64,000 nt of DNA. Origin: Candidatus Cloacimonadota bacterium (GTDB lineage Bacteria > Cloacimonadota > Cloacimonadia > Cloacimonadales > TCS61). The notes below the pieces were generated by a model that worked only from the letters and a program-made list of their open reading frames with translations, was not told the origin of the DNA and searched no databases. The translations under genes were made by a program, and so were the position numbers. Of the stretch, positions 23,946-53,517 are shown one piece after another (position 1 is the first letter of the stretch; every line of letters starts with the position of its first letter). The stretch lies in assembly GCA_021157525.1 (NCBI GenBank), contig JAGGWK010000060.1, forward strand, positions 11,293 to 75,292. The letters are read 5' to 3'.

Positions 23946-24033
23946 GCAGAAGTGGTGGAATTGGCAGACACGCAAGACTAAGGATCTTGTGCCCCTATCG
24001 GGTGTGCGGGTTCAAGTCCCGCCTTCTGTACCA
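23946..24033 (+). tRNA. tRNA-Leu; the anticodon loop CTAAGGA reads as anticodon AAG
   Basis: Hand-folded cloverleaf: acceptor GCAGAAG/CTTCTGT, anticodon stem CAAGA/TCTTG, long variable arm, T-arm GCGGG-TTCAAGT-CCCGC. CCA is encoded. Confidence 0.85.
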
Positions 24034-30645: not shown

Positions 30646-30719
30646 TGGTTGGGCTAGAAGGAGTTGAACCCTCACATACGGAACCAGAATCCGCTGTACT
30701 ACCATTATACTATAGCCCA
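30646..30719 (-). tRNA. tRNA-Gln (anticodon CTG)
   Basis: Hand fold: acceptor TGGGCTA/TAGCCCA (U1-A72 as in bacterial tRNA-Gln), anticodon loop TTCTGGT, T-loop TTCAACT. CCA is encoded. Confidence 0.85.
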
Positions 30720-30727
30720 GAGAAACA

Positions 30728-30802
30728 TGGTTGGGCCGGGAGGATTCGAACCCCCGCATACATGGACCAAAACCATGTGTCTTACCACTTGACGACGGCC
30801 CA
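30728..30802 (-). tRNA. tRNA-Gln (anticodon TTG)
   Basis: Hand fold: acceptor TGGGCCG/CGGCCCA, anticodon stem CATGG/CCATG with loop TTTTGGT, T-loop TTCGAAT. CCA is encoded. Confidence 0.85.
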
Positions 30803-30825
30803 ACAAAACTTCTCAAAAATATAGC

Positions 30826-30916
<91 letters not shown>

Positions 30917-30933
30917 AAAATAGCAAAGATCAA

Positions 30934-31019
30934 TGGCGGAGGATGAGGGACTCGAACCCCCAAGGGCATAGCCCGGCGGTTTTCAAGACCGCTGCCTTAC
31001 CAATTAGGACTAATCCTCC
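30934..31019 (-). tRNA. tRNA-Ser (anticodon TGA)
   Basis: Hand fold: acceptor GGAGGAT/ATCCTCC, anticodon stem GCGGT/ACCGC with loop CTTGAAA, long variable arm. CCA is encoded. Confidence 0.85.
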
Positions 31020-37012: not shown

Positions 37013-37016
37013 AAGC

Positions 37017-37038
37017 AGTTTCATGATATCATGAAACT
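37017..37038. repeat. perfect 22-nt palindrome AGTTTCATGAT|ATCATGAAACT
   Basis: Read directly from the sequence, 5 nt after the exbD stop. No U-tract follows, so it is either a weak terminator hairpin or a dimeric protein-binding site. Confidence 0.7.
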
Positions 37039-37081
37039 ATATCGAGACAGGAAAACGGTGTGAACGTGACTTTAAAAATGT

Positions 37082-37301
37082 AAAAAAGGGGCCGTCCCGC
37101 AACCGCAAAACTGAGACCTCTACTCTCCATGCCTGCGGCAGGTCGCCGCACAAGTCCGCTTCCGTCTTCGTTCATTGTAACACATGAACTACGACGCGAA
37201 AAGACGATCCGATGTGACAGCGACTTGGAGAGAGGCTCAAAACGAAGATTTCAATCTCGAATCTCGATTTTCTTGTTCTTCTCTCGGTTGTGGGACGACC
37301 C
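37082..37301 (-). ncRNA. unclassified structured RNA-like element, copy 1 (paralog of 52684-52893)
   Basis: A 17-bp closing helix pairs 37088-37105 with 37285-37301. It shares invariant blocks with copy 2 (20-nt ctgagacctctactctccat, 13-nt gtgacagcgactt) and has inner hairpins with compensatory differences. A T6 run follows on the minus strand. The strand call is tentative. Confidence 0.6.
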
Positions 37302-37312
37302 TTATATTAATC

Positions 37313-38290
37313 CTATTTAAATTCCCAGACGAAGGGATCCGGGCTATTGAATACAAAACGTTTCAGATAGGAAATCATGGTGTGGAGATCATAACCTGCA
37401 GGCACCACAAAGTAATCGTATTTGGCGACGAGAGCGGCAAATTCGGCATTTTCCATGAGGGCTGCATCGACGAAATAGATACCATGGCCAGGAAGGCTTA
37501 AGTCGGATGCATCCGTTGGCTCCACCTGACGATACAACACAACGTCCTGCTCTTTCAGCAGCTCTTCTTTGAGATGAGAAAAGTATTGGCCGTTGGATGG
37601 AGTAGCCAACACCACCAGTTGCTGCCCTGGTCGGAAGACATCAATGAGACGCTGTTGTTCCTCTGGAGCACTGGTGTCGGAAAGACCTGCCAGACCCCGC
37701 ACACCGCTCACGATAAACCATAGGGCAATAAGCACCGAGGCGATGCGTCCGATGAGTTTCAGCTCTTTTACTTTACTGAAAAAACCCACAAATCCCATGG
37801 GAACGAGGTATAATGTGGTGCCCAGAAAAAAGCCGAAAAAGAGGGTTGCGCCGTTTATGGGCCCCCCGAGATTCACCGCTTTTGAGAGAGCAATAAGAAA
37901 GGATGGACAGAAATTTACTCCCGTGAGCACCCCCAGCAAAAAAGCGCTTTTGGTGATGTTTGCCATCTTCGGAATGTGACATTTTTTTGCTTTTTGATGG
38001 GATCGTACTGCGGTGAGCAGCAGATACAATGAGAGTAAAATATAGGCAATGGATGTGAAAAACGTTCGGTTGATTTCGGTGATATTTTTGCCCAGATAGC
38101 CAGCGACAGCACCAAACGCCAAGTAGGTAAAGAAGCGGCCCAGAGAAATTTCCATTACCGCAAGGAAGGTTTTACCCACTTTTTTGTCATCGCTCAGGAG
38201 ATAGGGCAGGTAAATGGGTGAGCAGGTTGCCAGACACACCACCCCCGTGGCCAGTCCTAAACCCCAGCCTTCGATCAAACTTTGTATCAT
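37313..38290 (-). CDS. DsbD_2/CcdA-type polytopic membrane protein with a ~110-aa C-terminal soluble extension
   Basis: It has six predicted TMs. Cys lie in TM1 (VCLATCSPIYLP) and TM4 (VNFCPSF), as in thiol-disulfide electron-transfer membrane proteins. It is the last gene of the ferredoxin/FN3 operon. Confidence 0.65.
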   Translation of the reverse strand: MIQSLIEGWGLGLATGVVCLATCSPIYLPYLLSDDKKVGKTFLAVMEISLGRFFTYLAFGAVAGYLGKNITEINRTFFTSIAYILLSLYLLLTAVRSHQKAKKCHIPKMANITKSAFLLGVLTGVNFCPSFLIALSKAVNLGGPINGATLFFGFFLGTTLYLVPMGFVGFFSKVKELKLIGRIASVLIALWFIVSGVRGLAGLSDTSAPEEQQRLIDVFRPGQQLVVLATPSNGQYFSHLKEELLKEQDVVLYRQVEPTDASDLSLPGHGIYFVDAALMENAEFAALVAKYDYFVVPAGYDLHTMISYLKRFVFNSPDPFVWEFK

Positions 38291-39938: not shown

Positions 39939-42416
39939 TTAATATTCTACTACTTTCAGTTTTATGGCATTTCGCGGACACCAGCTCACGCAATCACCGC
40001 AGGCTACACAAGCATCGGGATCGATGGTGGCATAGGAGCCGTGGTCAGTGATGGCATCTTCAGGACAGTGACTTACACAGTGGCCGCAGCCATTACAGGG
40101 GGGACGGTTTATCTGGTACACCAGTTTTCCGGCCGGAGAATTTGAGATTTCCGACGTATTCCCATTGTCGTCGGTGGTACGGATGGCGAAGTAGATAACT
40201 TCGCCAGAGTTCAGGCCATTCACGTCGCAGGTTTGTGATGATCCGCCAGCCAGTGGAGCCGGGGGATTGCTGAAGATATTGGCATCATCCCAGTTTGCAT
40301 CGGTGATGGGTTCATCCCAGTACCGGATGTCGTAAATCAGGGCTGTGCCGGTGGTTCCATCATCGCCGGGTGCCGTCCAGCTGATGCGGATAGTGCTGGC
40401 ATTGATTGCCAAACCGGCGACGACAGCCAAATCTGAGATGGTGGCCGGTGGCGTGGTATCTTCGGTAAGCTGGGCGATGGCAATGTTCGAGATGGCCGCC
40501 GCATTGTTATTTTCGTCATAGGCCTTGATGGCAAAATAGTAGTCCATTCCCATGGAGAGACCGGTTACCTGGTAGGTTTCGGCAGAGCCGGATGGAGCCG
40601 GAGCAGGTAGATTGGGCAACAGGTCGGCAGTTTCCCAGTTTGCCTCGGTAATCAGTGCGTTGGATGAGCGAATCTGGTAATGATCGGCAAGGCCGTCCAA
40701 TCCGTCATCTCCCACAGCGCTCCAGCTGAGGGTAATAAAAGAGTCACCTGATTCTGCCGCCAGATCGCCGATAGTGGCGGGTGGTGTAGTATCCTCCAGC
40801 AAGGTGGCAGAGGCATTGTTTGATGCTTCGGAGGTATTTTGAGAATCGTCGGTAGCTCTGATGGCAAAGTAGTACTGGATGCCAGGTTGTGGCACATCGG
40901 TAAGATAGCTTTGCACCGTGCCGGCCACTTGGGGTGCGGGTGGGTTTGGTAATGTGGTGGCATCCTGCCAGTTTGCAGTGGTAATCTGGTTTTCCGAGAT
41001 TTTTATCTCGTAGGAAACCGCCGTTCCTTCATCGCCGTCATCACCGGGAGCTGTCCAATTCAGAGTCATATCGTTCTGGGATGCCGTTACCGCCAGATCA
41101 CTGATAACAGCCGGAGGAACGGTATCGGGGATTTCGGTAGTTTCGCCGGATGGCACGTTGCTCAGGGACGATGCGTTCAGGGCGTCATCCAGTGCGATGA
41201 TGGCAAAATAGTAGGTAGTAAGGGGTTGCAATCCTTCTATCAAAAGTGCTTCGGTAGTGCCGGCTGTCTGAGGTACCATGTTTTGGGGGTAGGCTTCCAG
41301 TGCAGCCCAGTTGTCTGGTGTGATGACCTCGGTATCCACTTTGATGATGTAGGCCGATGCGGTTCCGATATTCTGGTCGTCACCCACAGCGGTCCAGTTC
41401 AGCAGGATGCTGTTCACCGATAGCGAGGCAACAGCCAGGTCGTCAATCGGTGCCGGCGCCATGATATCCCCGATGATCTGAGCCTGTACAACATTGGAGA
41501 TGGCGGCGTAATTGAGGGCATCATCGTAGGCGCGGATGGCAAAATAGTAGTTTTGCTGCAAAGGCAGATCGCTGATGATGAGGGTTTCGGCATCTCCTGC
41601 AGCAGCGGGAACCAGAGACTGGCTGTAGGTGGATGCATCCGGCCAATTGTCTGAAGTGATTTCCTGGGTGCTGTAGCGAATATCATAGCCGGCGGCAAGG
41701 CCTTCCATGGCATCGTCACCTACCGCTGTCCATCCCAGAGTGATGGTGGCTTCGGCAGAAGTTGCCGTAAGGTCTGTGATCTCTGCCGGAGCTGTGGCAT
41801 CGATGATCTCTCCAGCCACCAGGACCTGGCACACCGAGGTGCCGCTGGAGTGGTTCACCTCGTCGAAGGCTTCCAGTTCCACTGATATCTGGGCATTTTG
41901 GGGAAGATCCCGAATAATCCAGTTTTCTTCAAACCCGGCAGGAGAAGGTAGCGGAAGGATAAAATTGTAGGCAATGGGATTGTTCAACGTGTCCCGCAAT
42001 GTAAGGCCATATCGGAAGGAGTTGCCAGATGTTCCGTCATCTCCGGTAGCCACAAACTGTATCTGCACCACGCCGATGGAATCTGAAACGACGGAAAAAG
42101 AATCGATGGCGGCAGGAGCAACGACATCCGGGGTGGTGGTAAAGGCGTCTTCCGGACACTGAAATTGGTCAACACAGCGCATGCACTGTACGCATGCATC
42201 CTGATCGATATAAACGGTAAAGGTGCGGGGATCTTTTTTTATGGCGTCATAGGGACAGGAAAAGTCATCCAGACATTCGTAGCAACCCACGCATCGGGAG
42301 AACTCTACCCGAACCGGTTGTGAATCCGGCCCGACTTTCCGGGCATCATCACTACAGCTGATAACAGTAAAGAAAACAATGACTATCGCTACAACTAACA
42401 AAAAACTCTTATTCAT
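39939..42416 (-). CDS. 825-aa lipoprotein: N-terminal ferredoxin-like Cys domain, six FN3-like repeats, C-terminal 2x[4Fe-4S] ferredoxin domain
   Basis: The start is ATG 42416 (GAGGA RBS; the listed upstream start is TTG). It has lipobox VIS|C and N-terminal CVGCYECLDDFSCP and CVQCMRCVDQFQCP. Six repeats carry W(T/S)A.GDD...Y.IRY...YYFAI. The C-terminus has CNGCGHCVSHCP and CVACGDCVSWCP. Confidence 0.8.
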   Translation of the reverse strand: MNKSFLLVVAIVIVFFTVISCSDDARKVGPDSQPVRVEFSRCVGCYECLDDFSCPYDAIKKDPRTFTVYIDQDACVQCMRCVDQFQCPEDAFTTTPDVVAPAAIDSFSVVSDSIGVVQIQFVATGDDGTSGNSFRYGLTLRDTLNNPIAYNFILPLPSPAGFEENWIIRDLPQNAQISVELEAFDEVNHSSGTSVCQVLVAGEIIDATAPAEITDLTATSAEATITLGWTAVGDDAMEGLAAGYDIRYSTQEITSDNWPDASTYSQSLVPAAAGDAETLIISDLPLQQNYYFAIRAYDDALNYAAISNVVQAQIIGDIMAPAPIDDLAVASLSVNSILLNWTAVGDDQNIGTASAYIIKVDTEVITPDNWAALEAYPQNMVPQTAGTTEALLIEGLQPLTTYYFAIIALDDALNASSLSNVPSGETTEIPDTVPPAVISDLAVTASQNDMTLNWTAPGDDGDEGTAVSYEIKISENQITTANWQDATTLPNPPAPQVAGTVQSYLTDVPQPGIQYYFAIRATDDSQNTSEASNNASATLLEDTTPPATIGDLAAESGDSFITLSWSAVGDDGLDGLADHYQIRSSNALITEANWETADLLPNLPAPAPSGSAETYQVTGLSMGMDYYFAIKAYDENNNAAAISNIAIAQLTEDTTPPATISDLAVVAGLAINASTIRISWTAPGDDGTTGTALIYDIRYWDEPITDANWDDANIFSNPPAPLAGGSSQTCDVNGLNSGEVIYFAIRTTDDNGNTSEISNSPAGKLVYQINRPPCNGCGHCVSHCPEDAITDHGSYATIDPDACVACGDCVSWCPRNAIKLKVVEY
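40122..42131 (-). repeat. tandem array of six ~111-codon FN3-like coding repeats
   Basis: The DNA motif GATGGC(A/G)AA(A/G)TAG(T/A)(A/T) (antisense of YYFAI/IYFAI) starts at 40182, 40527, 40860, 41199 and 41534, a period of 333-345 bp. The first repeat is divergent. Confidence 0.8.
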
Positions 42417-42770
42417 ACACCATCCTCTTTTTGCTATCAAACCAACATTCAGGTAACCAGAGAGGTGTCAAATGCAAAATTTCCGGTAAATCCGGAATAC
42501 ATACTTATGCAAGATGCCTGGAGAGGGGAACAAAGTATTTTCGTAAAAAATCTTAGATCCGGATAAAGAGTGTATTATTCACGCCACTGCTTTGTATTCA
42601 CCCGAATCCCGCTTCCAGAGCAGAGATCAATTATTTCTTGAAACGTTAGGAAGAGGTTTTGGACAAAACATAGCCTCCATTGGTAGCCCGTCCAGATCAT
42701 CCAGCCAGAGGCGATATCATGCTATTTAAGTAGATATTAACACCAGAATCCCCTTTTAGCTATCCAGAAG

Positions 42771-46887: not shown

Positions 46888-46935
46888 TCCATCCCGCATT
46901 ATTATCACTGTTAATGCGGGATGGACTTCTTTATC
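46888..46935 (+). terminator. probable terminator after lon
   Basis: A perfect 14-bp stem (TCCATCCCGCATTA / TAATGCGGGATGGA) has a 10-nt loop and is followed by CTTCTTTATC, a modest U-tract. Confidence 0.5.
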
Positions 46936-48138: not shown

Positions 48139-48216
48139 TGGGGTGGCTGAGGGGATTCGAACCCCCGACTCCAAGAGCCACAATCTTGTACTCTAACCAA
48201 CTGAGCTACAGCCACC
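48139..48216 (-). tRNA. tRNA-His (anticodon GTG) with an encoded G-1
   Basis: Hand fold: an extra 5' G opposite C73, acceptor GTGGCTG/CAGCCAC, anticodon stem CAAGA/TCTTG with loop TTGTGGC. CCA is encoded. Confidence 0.85.
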
Positions 48217-48229
48217 ATAAAATTACTTA

Positions 48230-48306
48230 TGGTACGCCAGCGGGGACTCGAACCCCAGACCTACGGATTAGAAATCCGTTGCTCTATCCAGCTGAGCTAC
48301 TGGCGC
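48230..48306 (-). tRNA. tRNA-Arg (anticodon TCT)
   Basis: Hand fold: acceptor GCGCCAG/CTGGCGT, anticodon stem ACGGA/TCCGT with loop TTTCTAA. CCA is encoded. Confidence 0.85.
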
Positions 48307-48315
48307 ATAAAAAAA

Positions 48316-48392
48316 TGGTAGCGGCGCAGGGACTTGAACCCCGGACACTCGGATTATGATTCCGATGCTCTAACCAACTGAGCTACGCCGCC
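48316..48392 (-). tRNA. tRNA with anticodon CAT (elongator Met, or Ile2 if lysidine-modified)
   Basis: Hand fold: acceptor GGCGGCG/CGCCGCT, anticodon stem TCGGA/TCCGA with loop ATCATAA. It lacks the 3 G-C initiator signature. CCA is encoded. Confidence 0.8.
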
Positions 48393-48406
48393 ACTCATTA
48401 AAAAAA

Positions 48407-48483
<77 letters not shown>

Positions 48484-50919: not shown

Positions 50920-51007
50920 ATTTTCATTTTTTTTTACTTTGCACTTGACCTCTTACCCTCACCTTAACAATCTATGCGTCATATTTAAATTATCTATGGG
51001 AGGAGAG

Positions 51008-52669
51008 ATGGCTTTAATGACCATGAAAGAGATGTATAGTCGCGTAGATTCAGCAATTACGCAACATCAGGATGTAAAGAATAACATACCCCGTACTGAA
51101 ATGATACGTGATGCTGTGGCTAATGGAGAAGCTCTGCCGGCGGCAAATGGTGCCCTCGCTACCTGGACACCTCCAGAATCTACCGGACGGAGCCCAAAAG
51201 ATACAATCACCGTAAAACACCCGGACTCATACCACAATATCGACTGGGATTCACCTAATAATTTGCCCCTGGAACCTTCTACCTTTGATATGCTGTTTGA
51301 AGACGCCCTGACCCTGATCAATAACAAAAAGACCCTTTACATCACAGACAGAGTGGTGGGAGCCGATTCCTCCTATGCCCTGCCTACTCGCGTCATTACC
51401 GATTGCGCACTCACCGCACTTTTCACAGATAATATGTTCCGTCCCGTACCCGAAGATATCGAAAGCAGCTGCTTCGCAGATAAACCTTTCACACTGATGG
51501 TTTTCCCCTATAATAAACTTCAGCGGGACCGCTACAAAGGCCTTCTGCGCACCATGCCAGATGGTCAAACATCCAACATGGCTGTTGCAATGGACTTCGA
51601 TCGCCGCATGGGTATTATCATCGGCTCCGCCTATGGTGGTAGCGTGAAAAAACTGATGTTCACCGTTATGAACTACTATCTGCCATTGATAGGCATCCTT
51701 CCTTTGCACTGTTCGGCAAATGAAGGCAAAGACGGCGACTCTGCTCTGCTTCTGGGCTTATCGGGAACCGGGAAAACCACTCTCTCTGCAGATCCAAATC
51801 GCGCCCTGCTGGGTGACGATGAGCATGGCTGGAGCAACGAAGGTATCGCCAACTTTGAAAACGGCTGCTATGCCAAACTGATCAACCTCAGTGTCCAAAA
51901 AGAACCGGAAATTTACAAAGCCGTCTTCCACGATGATGACTACCTCAAACATGGTTCCATCATAGAAAACTGCATGATGTACCCCAACGGACATTTTGAT
52001 CTGGATGATGAACGCCTGACACCAAATTCCCGTGGCTCATACCCCCTTACCTTCCTCAGCAATATCAAGCCATCATCAAAATCGGGACATCCCACGACCA
52101 TCCTCTTCCTCACTGCAGATGCAAATGCGGTAGTGCCTCCGGTATCCAAACTCACCGCACCCCAGGCAATGTTGTGGTTCCTCATGGGCTACACCAGTAA
52201 ATTGGCTGGCACCGAAACCGGCATCGTAGAGCCGGTATCAACCTTCTCGCGCTTCTTTGGTCAGCCTTTTATGCCCTGCAATCCAAACAGATATGCCACG
52301 ATGCTGGGAGAGAAAATGAAGGAACACGGCACCAACGTCTATCTGGTAAATACCGGATGGAGCGGAGGCCCCTACGGCGTGGGCTCACGTATGGATATCA
52401 ACCTTACTCGCAGCCTGGTAAATGCCGCCCTTACCGGAGAACTGGAAAAAGTAGATTACCGCGAGGATACGCTGTTGCACATCATGGTACCTACCTCCTG
52501 CCCAGGAGTGGATGCCACTATCCTGAACCCCAGAAACACCTGGGAAGACAAAGCTGCTTTTGATGCTCGCGCACAAAAACTGGCTCAAGACTTCAGTGAT
52601 TATTTCGACAAAGCCTACGGCAATAAAGAGCTGGATCCCGCTATTGTAGCTCAATGCCCGGGAAAATAG
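51008..52669 (+). CDS. pckA: phosphoenolpyruvate carboxykinase (ATP)
   Basis: It has the kinase-1a P-loop GLSGTGKTTLS and LLGDDEHGW. I moved the start to ATG 51008 (GGAGGAGAG RBS). Confidence 0.92.
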   Translation: MALMTMKEMYSRVDSAITQHQDVKNNIPRTEMIRDAVANGEALPAANGALATWTPPESTGRSPKDTITVKHPDSYHNIDWDSPNNLPLEPSTFDMLFEDALTLINNKKTLYITDRVVGADSSYALPTRVITDCALTALFTDNMFRPVPEDIESSCFADKPFTLMVFPYNKLQRDRYKGLLRTMPDGQTSNMAVAMDFDRRMGIIIGSAYGGSVKKLMFTVMNYYLPLIGILPLHCSANEGKDGDSALLLGLSGTGKTTLSADPNRALLGDDEHGWSNEGIANFENGCYAKLINLSVQKEPEIYKAVFHDDDYLKHGSIIENCMMYPNGHFDLDDERLTPNSRGSYPLTFLSNIKPSSKSGHPTTILFLTADANAVVPPVSKLTAPQAMLWFLMGYTSKLAGTETGIVEPVSTFSRFFGQPFMPCNPNRYATMLGEKMKEHGTNVYLVNTGWSGGPYGVGSRMDINLTRSLVNAALTGELEKVDYREDTLLHIMVPTSCPGVDATILNPRNTWEDKAAFDARAQKLAQDFSDYFDKAYGNKELDPAIVAQCPGK

Positions 52670-52683
52670 GCAATACATCTATG

Positions 52684-52893
52684 AAAAAGGCCATCCCACA
52701 ACCGAAAAGCTGAGACCTCTACTCTCCATTCCTCAACGGAAGGTCGCCGTGCAAGTCCACTACGGTCCCGGCTTCTACGGCTAAAGCCGATACGCCGCGA
52801 CACAGCGGGGTGACAGCGACTTAGAAGTGGCGGCTTAAAACGGAAATTTGAATTTCTGCTTTTTTGCTTCTCTCTCGGTTATAGGATGGCTCC
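52684..52893 (-). ncRNA. unclassified structured RNA-like element, copy 2 (paralog of 37082-37301)
   Basis: A closing helix pairs 52689-52704 with 52876-52891. It has the same invariant blocks (52710-52729, 52810-52822), and its hairpins covary with copy 1. A T5 run follows on the minus strand. It lies between pckA and marR. Confidence 0.6.
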
Positions 52894-53073
52894 TTTTTCT
52901 CTATGCTGAAATTCAATCCCATCTTCACTCCTTCTGGGTATCTGAAAAGCAGTAAATTTATGCGTAATCTTCCCCTAAAACGGTGTAATGACACCGGGCA
53001 GAAGACATTTTCTTTGACACAGCATCCCACCCTTCAAAGTGTTGCGCATGCAACAAAAAGGTGAGGGATAACA

Positions 53074-53517
53074 ATGTGGAGAGACAAAGCTGTAGCCTAC
53101 TGGATAAATCTGATTTCTCAGACATCCAGGACCCATATCGATCGGGAACTTGCTCCCCTTAAACTCAGCTCGGGAGCCTGCAATATCCTGATGGTGCTGT
53201 TTCGCCAAAATGGCATGTCTCAGCGGGATCTCTGCCGGATACTGCTGGTGCACAAGGCAAACATCACCAGGGCATTGCAGAAGCTTGAAAAGCAGGGATT
53301 TGTTCGCCGCAAACCAGACCCCTCCGACAGTCGCACCTACCGCATTTACCTTACGAACAAAGCCCATGACCAGCGAAGCAACATCAAGGAGCAACTCAGG
53401 GCCTGGGATATCCATCTGCGGGAATCACTACTGCCCCGGGAACAGGAAGAATTACTTCGATTACTCCGCAAGATTGCCAAATATCTGCATCCATCCAAAG
53501 CCGGTGACGCCTTATGA
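53074..53517 (+). CDS. MarR family transcriptional regulator
   Basis: It has a winged HTH (MSQRDLCRILLVHKANITRALQKLEKQGFVRRKPDPSDSRTYRIYLT) and a GAGGGA RBS. Confidence 0.88.
   Translation: MWRDKAVAYWINLISQTSRTHIDRELAPLKLSSGACNILMVLFRQNGMSQRDLCRILLVHKANITRALQKLEKQGFVRRKPDPSDSRTYRIYLTNKAHDQRSNIKEQLRAWDIHLRESLLPREQEELLRLLRKIAKYLHPSKAGDAL

Follow-up and report, generated by a model that had tools for sequence, protein, structure and literature searches.

A three-copy, imperfectly palindromic intergenic element with terminator-like ends in one uncultured Cloacimonadota species

Does the strongly folding element that lies just past a membrane protein gene on the minus strand of the 64,000-nt stretch of Cloacimonadota DNA analysed here (the window) represent the gene of a structured RNA, or a repeat that folds because its ends are inverted? 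The original prediction described it as one of two diverged copies and offered a 3'-UTR-derived RNA, an elaborate terminator and a regulatory RNA as possible identities. We found an intergenic, imperfect palindrome of ~175–220 bp with three copies (copies 1, 2 and 3) in one uncultured Cloacimonadota species, each with inverted ends forming a helix of 14–18 bp, A- and T-runs at its flanks and an interior that differs between copies. The elaborate terminator was the identity that fitted best, and a conserved structured or regulatory RNA gene was not supported. Our preferred reading, held tentatively and with slightly less than even confidence, is a low-copy MITE/SPRITE-like palindromic repeat acting as a terminator, which would make the element a young, species-restricted, three-member family, kin in type to Correia, ERIC, bcr1 and SPRITE.

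Copy 1 in its full-length form, comprising closing helix and U6 tail, occupies 37082..37303 on the minus strand (nhmmer family profile, E=4e-64). As predicted, it starts just past the stop codon of a DsbD_2-family membrane protein gene (37313..38290, minus strand), at a measured distance of 11 nt, and it has the same sense as this gene. The closing helix P1 joins 37088-37105 with 37285-37301 in 17 pairs, with one G.T and one C.A mismatch on the plus strand (one U.G and one A.C on the minus strand). In minus sense its 5' arm is GGGUCGUCCCACAACCG (37285..37301) and its 3' arm is CGGUUGCGGGACGGCCC (37089..37105), directly followed in the DsbD_2 direction by the U6 run (37082-37087) that had been proposed to end the element. 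Inside the helix, all on the minus strand, are the small 5' hairpin P2 (GAGAU-UGAA-AUCUU, 37245..37258; copy 2 counterpart at 52843-52856), adjoined by a 7-nt tandem duplication (37254-37267); the P3 pyrimidine strand UGAGCCUCUCUCC (37227..37239), which pairs with a purine block; a deletable 48-nt internal segment holding a variable hairpin and a GGACUUG block (37150..37197); and a 20-nt block, AUGGAGAGUAGAGGUCUCAG (37111..37130), that is the same in copies 1 and 2. Downstream stands a separate, perfect 10-bp hairpin followed by CUUUUAU (37016..37039, minus strand), which drew only a spurious miRNA match from Rfam and probably serves as the DsbD_2 operon's native terminator. Read in plus sense, copy 1 faces a convergent gene.

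Copy 2 (52684..52896, minus strand; E=1e-54), 15.6 kb from copy 1, is closed by a helix with the 5' arm GGAGCCAUCCUAUAACCG (52876..52893, minus strand) and the 3' arm CGGUUGUGGGAUGGCCUU (52687..52704, minus strand), so that both copies are, as predicted, diverged paralogues closed by a 17–18 bp helix. It is antisense to pckA (50996..52669, plus strand), whose stop codon lies 14 nt away, and is separated by 177 nt from a marR-family gene (53074..53517, plus strand) that diverges from it in minus sense. A5 and U5 flank copy 2 and give it a terminator-like look in both directions, with U5 after the helix both in the pckA direction and in the opposite one, the latter being the counterpart of the U6 at copy 1. 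No other terminator-like site was found between pckA and marR. An 11-nt match, TTTTCATAGAT, between the copy 2 flank and the 3' region of pckA in a sister lineage was in opposite orientation and was therefore not taken as an empty site.

Copy 3 came from a metagenome scan with an 18-mer of the conserved block, which matched copies 1 and 2 and one new locus, and which may miss diverged copies since it needs an intact 18-mer. This copy (contig L026, 7998-8206, same species) is a mosaic, retaining the closing helix and ~70 nt at its 3' end, with 5' ~120 nt that are unrelated to copies 1 and 2. It lies 25 nt past the stop codon of yitT and antisense to it, diverges from the next gene at a spacing of 169 nt, and is followed in the yitT direction by a separate small hairpin with a U-rich tail. 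In minus sense, no U-run directly follows its helix, the U-run and CAU(AGA) being displaced by a 10-nt insertion; U4 follows in the yitT direction. All three copies of the element, then, lie 11–25 nt behind a stop codon, in mixed orientation relative to that gene, and the helix is directly followed by a U-tract in the direction of the preceding gene (U6, U5 and U4 in copies 1, 2 and 3, respectively). Copies 1 and 3 have the preceding gene's stop codon on one side and, on the other, a small terminator hairpin of ordinary appearance.

The main rival explanation, which we consider unlikely, is that small RNAs of ~200 nt, acting in trans or binding protein, form a lineage-specific family transcribed from the minus strand of the window. 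Copy 2 would be the intact gene, sharing a bidirectional terminator with pckA, copy 1 would be embedded in a 3' UTR and copy 3 would be decaying; GGAGAGUAGAGGUCUCAG, the purine block, would serve as working site, with the closing helix and U-run as the terminator belonging to the RNA itself. The similar spacing at which copies 2 and 3 diverge from the next gene favours this explanation, as do the lack of indels in copy 2 in 10 of 10 contigs and the U6 and U5 that follow the helix in minus sense; copy 3, however, is without a terminator in that sense. DsbD-type genes lie next to two of the three copies; this again favours the small RNA and would not be expected from random insertion. An extended version, somewhat more doubtful still, sees in copy 2 and its paralogues a previously unknown ~200-nt small RNA class of one Cloacimonadota lineage, with GGAGAGUAGAGGUCUCAG as a putative site for a protein or a pyrimidine-rich RNA, a helix partner free to vary, and a tie to thiol-redox membrane proteins, the tie being drawn because, besides the two copies next to DsbD-type genes, copy 2 diverges from a MarR-family regulator gene. 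If the small-RNA explanation were true, the locus would reveal a new Cloacimonadota small-RNA family with a possible tie to disulfide/redox membrane proteins, which would be of moderate interest.

Across the element, copies 1 and 2 are identical in 66% of alignment columns (143/218); a figure of 81% is the aligner's mean column identity, with flanks included in the alignment. Most of the blocks listed in the original prediction are indeed shared by these copies (the 20-nt and 13-nt blocks, ggtcgccg and caagtcc), while the 12-nt cttctctcggtt is exact in copy 1 only and shrinks to a shared tctctcggtt (10 nt). Within the window, matches to the 20-nt block were confined to 37111-37130 and 52710-52729, and matches to the 13-nt block to 37214-37226 and 52810-52822; for the 20-mer, shuffles expect 0 matches, even with 3 mismatches allowed. 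Both identical runs exceed uniform divergence (column shuffling, P=0.008 for 20 nt and P=0.02 for 13 nt), and the clustering of conservation (P=0.008) is a point for the small RNA and counts against the preferred reading. The last 18 nt of the 20-nt block are present in the reference haplotype of copy 3, and the P3 partner strand differs in sequence and register (UGAGCCUCUCUCC in copy 1, CUUCU in copy 2, UGAGAUAUCUCC in copy 3); the persistence of the block with a different pairing partner in each of the three copies likewise favours the small RNA. The 20-nt block is not invariant, contrary to the original prediction: one copy 1 strain reads GGAGGG within it, and four of six copy 3 haplotypes have GG->AA there.

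Homology among the copies reaches ~14 nt beyond the helix on its 5' side and ~12 nt on its 3' side, and the U-run with CAU(AGA) belongs to the homologous unit in all three, a further point for a small RNA with its own terminator. These limits leave no promoter common to the copies; neither a promoter-like site nor upstream likeness among the copies was seen, which weighs against the small RNA. In minus sense, no sigma-70-like site was found upstream of any copy, although the promoter consensus of Cloacimonadota may differ, and the aligned flanks held no common upstream motif. A likeness between copies 1 and 2, GAATTT...ATAG, was dropped because in copy 1 it is conserved C-terminal coding sequence of DsbD_2. 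No open reading frame is conserved across the three copies. A small protein was rejected: the AUG in the block opens 33 codons in copy 1 and 16 in copy 2 (read by eye, below the 50-aa cutoff of the open reading frame lists), is AGG in copy 3 and has no Shine-Dalgarno sequence.

At the boundaries themselves, the flank alignment held only a CAT/GAT...CAT trinucleotide, plus CATAGA on both sides of copy 2, the right-hand one of which, common to copy 3, is probably part of the element, judging from the alignment. No copy-specific target-site duplication was found in the aligned flanks of the three copies. The original prediction had named terminal inverted repeats with target-site duplications as the mark of a MITE; the closing helix supplies the first, and a clean duplication was not found. 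TTAC/TTTC adjoins the 3' boundary. This sequence, together with the missing duplication, which IS200/IS605-type elements do not make either, would suit a site whose action is at the DNA level, in cruciform or single-stranded hairpin form (for instance a site of recombination, a single-strand origin or an IS200/IS605-type end), and templated repair of a DNA palindrome would likewise yield complementary ends with paired changes. We nevertheless regard such a site as very improbable: the Pfam lists for the neighbourhoods contain no recombinase, transposase, relaxase or Rep gene, no plasmid or phage match to the block or the terminal pattern was obtained, and G.U-type strand asymmetry favours RNA over DNA. 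An integron attC site was rejected, as the arms, inspected by eye, do not fit RYYYAAC/GTTRRRY.

How far, then, does the element extend beyond these three loci? A profile search (nhmmer, family profile) of all the DNA examined here returned no further copy, and the 18-mer block had 0 matches in 185,579 GTDB species. The terminal 20-mer had 60 taxonomically scattered matches in GTDB species, judged to be chance; none came from a record with Cloacimonadota in its title, had a convincing partner arm or gave a profile match past the pattern region. Scans of viral sequences for the block and the terminal pattern yielded chance matches only, and a phage or plasmid origin was rejected on that ground. 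No parent insertion sequence or transposase with the same ends was found in the GTDB terminal 20-mer scan, the viral scan or the Pfam lists of the three neighbourhoods, which also lack RAYT, RVT, IscB, TnpB and IS110. Closing-helix arms matched 8 times in the window, against 4.35 expected, and half of these matches were the arms of copies 1 and 2 themselves, so that solo arms were not in excess of chance. A likeness of ~10 nt between the arms of the Lon terminator (46888-46925) and the closing helix was also judged to be chance.

Both strands of the element fold better than shuffles (minus strand, z = -5.9 for copy 1 and -6.8 for copy 2; plus strand, z = -5.0 and -3.1). As predicted, the minus strand folds better in 3 of 3 copies, with minimum free energies of -93.1 vs -83.7, -91.4 vs -72.8 and -88.5 vs -77.8 kcal/mol (minus vs plus, copies 1, 2 and 3), which supports the small RNA and counts against the preferred reading. 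The predicted minimum-energy folds are branched in all three copies, those of copies 1 and 2 pair GUCGCUG with CGGCGAC, and the nested inner fold that had been proposed (an AAGUC/GACUU helix with a CGACCU-loop hairpin) did not hold up, enforcing it costing 7.3 (copy 1) and 20.6 (copy 2) kcal/mol relative to the minimum-energy fold. The paired changes between copies 1 and 2 were present as described (closing-helix G-C to A-U, TGCGG/CCGCA to ACGG/CCGT and AGATT/AATCT to GAAATT/AATTTC). The closing helix was 94% paired over 18 variants, with four pairs altered on both sides, and it was the only helix in which pairing was maintained. For P2, comparison of copies 1 and 2 by eye gave one pair altered on both sides (G-C to A-U), and the covariation count does not bear on this comparison, because the copy 2 rows were gapped and the both-sides changes came from misaligned copy 3 rows.

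A further possibility is that the element belongs, in diverged form, to one of the known classes of RNA, such as 6S RNA, a retron msr-msd, a riboswitch or leader, a guide-RNA scaffold or a ribozyme. 6S RNA (RF00013) is ~200 nt long, has its 5' and 3' ends paired in a long closing stem and occurs as paralogue pairs in some bacteria, and the length and closing helix of the element resemble both 6S RNA and retron non-coding RNA. Membership in such a class is nonetheless extremely improbable, given that, in agreement with the original prediction, none of the three copies matched Rfam 15 on either strand at the gathering score or at E<=10, beyond spurious short matches, and that the fold is branched and not a rod with a central bubble; at gathering score, Rfam 15 returned only tRNAs in the whole window. 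6S RNA was rejected on its lack of a covariance-model match, the branched fold and the absence of the element even from sister lineages and from GTDB, and it also differs from the element in view of the latter's neutral-level polymorphism. Retrons, guide-RNA scaffolds and bridge RNAs were rejected because none of the neighbourhoods contains a gene for reverse transcriptase, IscB, TnpB or IS110. A riboswitch or leader was rejected because, in minus sense, nothing downstream of copy 1 or 2 could be regulated, and copy 1 in plus sense faces the convergent gene.

Between strains, segregating sites numbered 6/174, 3/213 and 5/~205 in copies 1, 2 and 3, compared to 35/1384, 6/2140 and 14/1349 at third codon positions of the adjacent genes, so that 14 sites were observed vs ~7 expected from third codon positions (~2x), a rate near that of neighbouring non-coding DNA. 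The 48-nt internal segment of copy 1 was deleted in seven of nine full contigs, with GCG microhomology at the ends of the deletion. Purifying selection on the element was thus not seen, in view of twice the third-position density, the common 48-nt deletion and the common GG->AA change. Polymorphism at or above the level of third codon positions is difficult to reconcile with a small RNA, as is the fact that both the deletion and the GG->AA change in its supposed working site are common.

Within helices, substitutions between strains were mostly C->U or A->G and preserved pairing on the minus strand. In the 5' arm of copy 1 (37285..37301), for example, C->U gives a U.G pair and A->G repairs the A.C mismatch. 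Such changes favour the small RNA and count against the preferred reading, as RNA from the minus strand would show them. However, pairing was kept on the minus-sense strand five to six times vs two on the other, a bias that is not significant (~6 vs 2), and a copy 2 change at 52890 breaks the helix on the minus strand while keeping it on the other.

The element was present in all contigs examined (14 for copy 1, 10 for copy 2, 13 for copy 3), and no empty site was found among these contigs within the species; evidence for presence and absence therefore comes from between lineages and not from between strains. In the two nearest sister lineages, relatives with 75% identity in DsbD_2 and 85% in PckA, both orthologous sites carry plain terminator hairpins and no element, one relative contig (L036) being uninformative for the pckA site as it stops at the pckA stop codon. 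That both loci lack the element in sister lineages, and that 185,579 GTDB species lack it too, argues against the small RNA. Given three copies in one species, absence from both orthologous sites in relatives, strain evolution at a neutral rate or faster, the 48-nt deletion, the lack of a common promoter and the mixed orientation, we consider the RNA-gene reading unsupported. The locus also offers genome scans a useful warning: a structured RNA gene should not be called solely on the strength of long closing helices, paired substitutions and 'invariant blocks' shared by two paralogues, and strain polymorphism and orthologous sites in sister lineages here signalled the opposite.

In the low-copy repeat that we prefer, the unit would have spread into 3' untranslated regions by transposition or ectopic duplication, and the transcript of the neighbouring gene would include it as a tail, whichever way round it had come to lie. 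The long closing helix with its U-tract may terminate transcription intrinsically or block 3' exonucleases, possibly in both directions at the convergent gene pair of copy 1. Selection, perhaps aided by hairpin-templated repair of the palindrome, would preserve the complementarity of the ends, and the interior would meanwhile drift, lose segments and be replaced. The repeat seems to have been taken over as a terminator of housekeeping genes such as pckA. If this reading is true, the element adds one more palindromic intergenic repeat family, in a phylum without cultured genetics. Several observations count against its parts. Three is a low copy number for a mobile repeat, neither an unambiguous target-site duplication nor a transposase or matching parent element was found, and no strain with an empty site was seen. 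A helix around ~180 nt is no efficient canonical terminator, copy 3 has just U4 in the direction of its gene and no U-run immediately past the helix in minus sense, and the 'loop' is so large that the full helix goes unscored in a consensus terminator scan.

In another explanation, improbable in our judgement, ordinary terminator or stabiliser modules of 3' UTRs were copied by rare ectopic recombination without any mobility mechanism, the interior being an oversized loop. The low copy number, the mere 15.6 kb between two of the copies, the lack of a target-site duplication or transposase and the retention of the closing helix and U-tracts around a drifting interior are all in line with such copying. 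It leaves unexplained, however, the sharp homology boundaries common to three unrelated intergenic regions, the opposite orientations relative to the upstream gene, and the position of copies 1 and 3 upstream of a second, ordinary terminator hairpin.

Small RNAs derived from 3' UTRs are known, e.g., CpxQ and SroC, and copy 1 resembles them in that it lies within an operon's 3' UTR, shares the operon's sense and ends in a terminator-like helix with U6, whereas copies 2 and 3 are antisense to the preceding gene and the element is not conserved in relatives. REP/REPIN sequences, like the element, are extragenic hairpin-forming palindromes, often between convergent genes and without target-site duplication (PMC3337134, PMC3116915). 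REPINs, however, consist of two inverted REPs of ~25–40 nt with a short spacer, number tens to hundreds of copies and are associated with RAYT, whereas the element has one long-range helix around ~180 nt and just three copies, and no RAYT gene was seen near it.

The element also resembles Correia/CREE of Neisseria, ERIC of Enterobacteriaceae, bcr1 of the Bacillus cereus group and RUP of pneumococcus, which are non-coding units of 100–220 bp (Correia in ~104 and ~157 bp forms; PMC3184786, Table 1) with terminal inverted repeats around a variable core, located near gene ends in either orientation. In the same source, MITE-like intergenic repeats of this kind are described with discrete internal deletion variants, predicted long RNA stem-loops, compensatory changes in the case of bcr1, and a distribution that differs among relatives (PMC3184786). 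Two features by which MITEs are recognised were found here: terminal inverted repeats around a short non-coding core (14–18 bp ends, three copies) and presence/absence between related genomes (a plain terminator at both sister-lineage sites). Those families, by contrast, run to tens or hundreds of copies, with target duplications of a defined kind (TA; 5 bp in bcr1), compared to three copies and no clean duplication found for the element, and no sequence likeness to them was apparent, as judged solely by the GTDB, phage and metagenome pattern scans. SPRITE differs in being half the size, with many copies and a Gram-positive host, and the element's helix encloses ~180 nt with a conserved purine block in the interior. 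Both are nevertheless dispersed repeats with a predicted RNA structure that mimics an intrinsic terminator (for SPRITE, PMC3184786), and SPRITE copies, by analogy, presumably also lie downstream of genes, matching the helix and U-tract predicted for the element downstream of a gene and in its direction.

Our tentative interpretation is that the element is a palindromic repeat of low copy number, in which the closing helix (the long pairing of its ends) and U-tract serve as a terminator or 3′-end protector of the adjoining gene. Both copies predicted in the window were present on the minus strand, copy 1 at 37082–37303 and copy 2 at 52684–52896, and they constituted the sole non-coding repeat family within the 64 kb. 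In minus-sense alignment, 143 of 218 element columns were identical (66%), with identical runs of 20, 13, 10, and 9 nt; the two longest exceeded column-shuffling expectation (P = 0.008 and P = 0.02), and conservation was thus clustered. The 20-nt run was a purine block (37111–37130 and 52710–52729). Another supposedly shared block, cttctctcggtt, matched exactly in copy 1 only, and two tested shared blocks had no occurrence in the window beyond the two copies. The closing helix had 17 pairs in copy 1 and 18 in copy 2, and both copies folded far more stably than shuffled versions of themselves. Copy 1 also carried a 7-nt tandem duplication (37254–37267; UCGAGAU twice, minus sense) beside a small 5′ hairpin, absent from copy 2. 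Rfam 15 gave no match to either copy even at E ≤ 10, its only matches across the window at gathering score being tRNAs: two clusters of four genes each (30649–31019, 48142–48483, −) and a single gene (23946–24030, +).

The 18-mer core of the purine block had no exact match in 185,579 GTDB species genomes, and in JGI metagenomes the 18-mer with one R allowed recovered copies 1 and 2, ten chance matches, and one new locus, copy 3, on metagenome contig L026 (7998–8206). Copy 3 had a perfect 14-bp closing helix in which several pairs differed from copy 1 on both sides; its 3′ ∼70 nt were retained (∼85% identical to copy 1), while its 5′ ∼120 nt were unrelated to either copy. That terminal inverted repeats enclose a variable, mosaic, non-coding core argues for a MITE-like or terminator-like repeat. 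Judging by neighboring proteins, the source is an uncultured Cloacimonadota species, and copy 3 is assigned to the same species because its flanking YitT occurs in the same samples and the YitT homologues follow the identity ladder of the window proteins (100%, 78%, and ∼71%). Searching all retrieved sequence with a family profile turned up no fourth copy. When the GTDB genomes were scanned again, with a degenerate 20-mer from the element's end, the 60 matches were scattered across taxa, none in a Cloacimonadota-titled record, none with a convincing partner arm, and none with a profile match outside the pattern region; in two viral scans every match was attributable to chance. Within the reach of these data, the whole family consists of three members and is confined to one species. 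The sequence family is new, matching nothing in Rfam, GTDB, or the viral sequences scanned; the kind of element is already known, MITE-like and terminator-like intergenic repeats being described in PMC3184786, compared with which the copies here are unusually few. Several independent metagenome contigs broke inside copy 1 or copy 3 (L006 at 11053, L010 at 4009, and L045 at 1386), probably due to the palindrome and a strain-level indel confusing assemblers, and copies may therefore be under-represented in assemblies.

Each copy abutted the stop codon of a gene, copy 1 in the sense of that gene and copies 2 and 3 antisense to it. Copy 1 began 11 nt past the stop of a DsbD_2-family gene (37313–38290), the last gene of the ferredoxin operon, and was convergent with tonB-exbB-exbD. 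Copy 2 lay 14 nt past the pckA stop, antisense to pckA, and a marR-MATE operon began 177 nt away; copy 3 lay 25 nt past the yitT stop, antisense to yitT, with the dsbD start 169 nt away. A-/T-runs flanking copies sited just past stop codons in either orientation again point to a MITE-like or terminator-like repeat. Read with the adjoining gene, the helix was followed by U6, U5, and U4 in copies 1–3, and in minus sense by U6, U5, and none, the homologous UUUUACAUAGA of copy 3 having been shifted away from the helix by a 10-nt insertion. The helix and U-tract would terminate the adjoining gene's transcript or protect its 3′ end. Beyond copies 1 and 3, in the gene's direction, stood another hairpin, small, of ordinary type, and trailed by U-rich sequence, as expected if the repeat had inserted between stop codon and native terminator. 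The hairpin past copy 1 (37016–37039), a perfect 10-bp palindrome beginning 4 nt after the exbD stop with a U-run on the minus strand only, probably serves the convergent DsbD_2 operon as its native terminator; Rfam's only match there, to a miRNA, was spurious. The hairpin past copy 3 (L026 7976–7994) reads in the yitT direction. In the pckA–marR interval, the terminator scan found no terminator-like site other than copy 2. Elsewhere, the arms of the Lon protease gene's terminator hairpin (46888–46925), CCATCCCGCA, resembled the closing-helix arms of copies 1 and 2 over ∼10 nt, a likeness that we judged to be chance.

The nearest homologues of DsbD_2 (75% identity) and PckA (85%) came from a sister lineage, where the element was absent from both sites and a short canonical terminator hairpin followed the gene instead, which indicates recent acquisition or fast turnover. 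Similarity among the flanks of the three copies ended ∼14 nt upstream and ∼12 nt downstream of the helix, so the unit does not appear to include a shared promoter, and a sigma-70 scan found no minus-sense site upstream of any copy. No copy-specific target-site duplication was visible in the flanks; a CAT/GAT...CAT trinucleotide stood at both element boundaries, and CATAGA flanked copy 2 on both sides, the right-hand one also being present in copy 3. What the data show directly is the element's anatomy, distribution, polymorphism, and maintained pairing; its mobility, like termination, is something that we infer.

The main alternative, a lineage-specific small-RNA family transcribed from the minus strand, seems somewhat less likely to us. 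Points in its favor are the consistently better folding of that strand (z = −5.9 and −6.8 against shuffles for copies 1 and 2, vs. −5.0 and −3.1 for the plus strand), a U-run belonging to the homologous unit, the clustered conservation, and copy 2 being intact. The nested inner fold of the original prediction fared poorly, lying 7.3, 20.6, and 6.9 kcal/mol above the minimum-energy fold in copies 1–3, and from copy to copy the pyrimidine partner strand of the purine block changed in both sequence and register. In the minimum-energy fold of copies 1 and 2, GUCGCUG pairs with CGGCGAC, a helix that outlasts a 48-nt deletion and takes two strain substitutions as G·U pairs. Strain substitutions keeping helix pairing numbered 5–6 for the minus-sense strand vs. 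2 for the other, a suggestive bias that was not significant. Over 18 distinct variants, the closing helix was 94% paired, with four pairs changed on both sides and six on one. The whole structure model exceeded 500 of 500 shuffles for percentage of cells paired and covariation score; the number of pairs changed on both sides, in contrast, was within the shuffled range (8 vs. 6.1 in shuffles, the observed value being reached by 43/500). Since the sample is effectively three sequences, covariation is weak support, and DNA-level repair templated on the hairpin could likewise produce paired changes in a palindrome.

Population data were the most informative line of evidence, and the strain polymorphism of the three copies gave no sign of purifying selection. 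In copy 1 (nine contigs), 6 of 174 comparable nt were segregating vs. 35/1384 third codon positions in five neighboring genes, copy 2 had 3/213 vs. 6/2140, and copy 3 had 5/∼205 vs. 14/1349, in sum 14 sites vs. ∼7 predicted from the third-position rate. With ten contigs, copy 2 had 6/213, equal to what the neighboring 177 nt of non-coding DNA showed. Seven of nine full copy 1 contigs, from independent assemblies, lacked 48 internal nt (37150–37197) bounded by GCG microhomology, the window carrying the rarer full-length form; the caagtcc block, proposed as invariant, is lost with this deletion. Nor was the purine block constant, with GG→AA in four of six copy 3 haplotypes and GGAGGG in one copy 1 strain. 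The GG→AA change, an adjacent double substitution at L026 8167–8168 (other strains L040–L043), turns U·G into U-A in a helix UGAGAU/AUCUCA in one register and could be a templated, palindrome-correcting mutation. This neutral drift and discrete deletion form, together with sister lineages without the element and no shared promoter, favor the MITE-like or terminator-like reading.

DsbD/CcdA-type membrane thiol-disulfide genes adjoined two of three copies, copy 1 lying downstream of its DsbD_2 gene in the same sense and copy 3 upstream of dsbD (L026 6182–7831) and divergent. This placement would also suit a small-RNA family; we roughly estimate its chance probability at a few percent, allowing for post hoc choice of category. 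Copy 2 was divergent from the MarR-family regulator gene, and these neighbors may reflect chance or a functional link. Upstream of copy 2, a terminator-like hairpin, CGGUGU-CAUU-ACACCG followed by UUUU, lay at 52981–52996 (−), and just ahead of the marR start a palindrome, GTGTTGCGCATGCAACA (53039–53055), resembles a MarR operator. The ferredoxin operon is headed by an unusual fusion, an 833-aa ORF (39939–42440) whose ends are ferredoxin-like and rich in cysteine and whose interior holds four repeats (family D2) at intervals of ∼336 nt.
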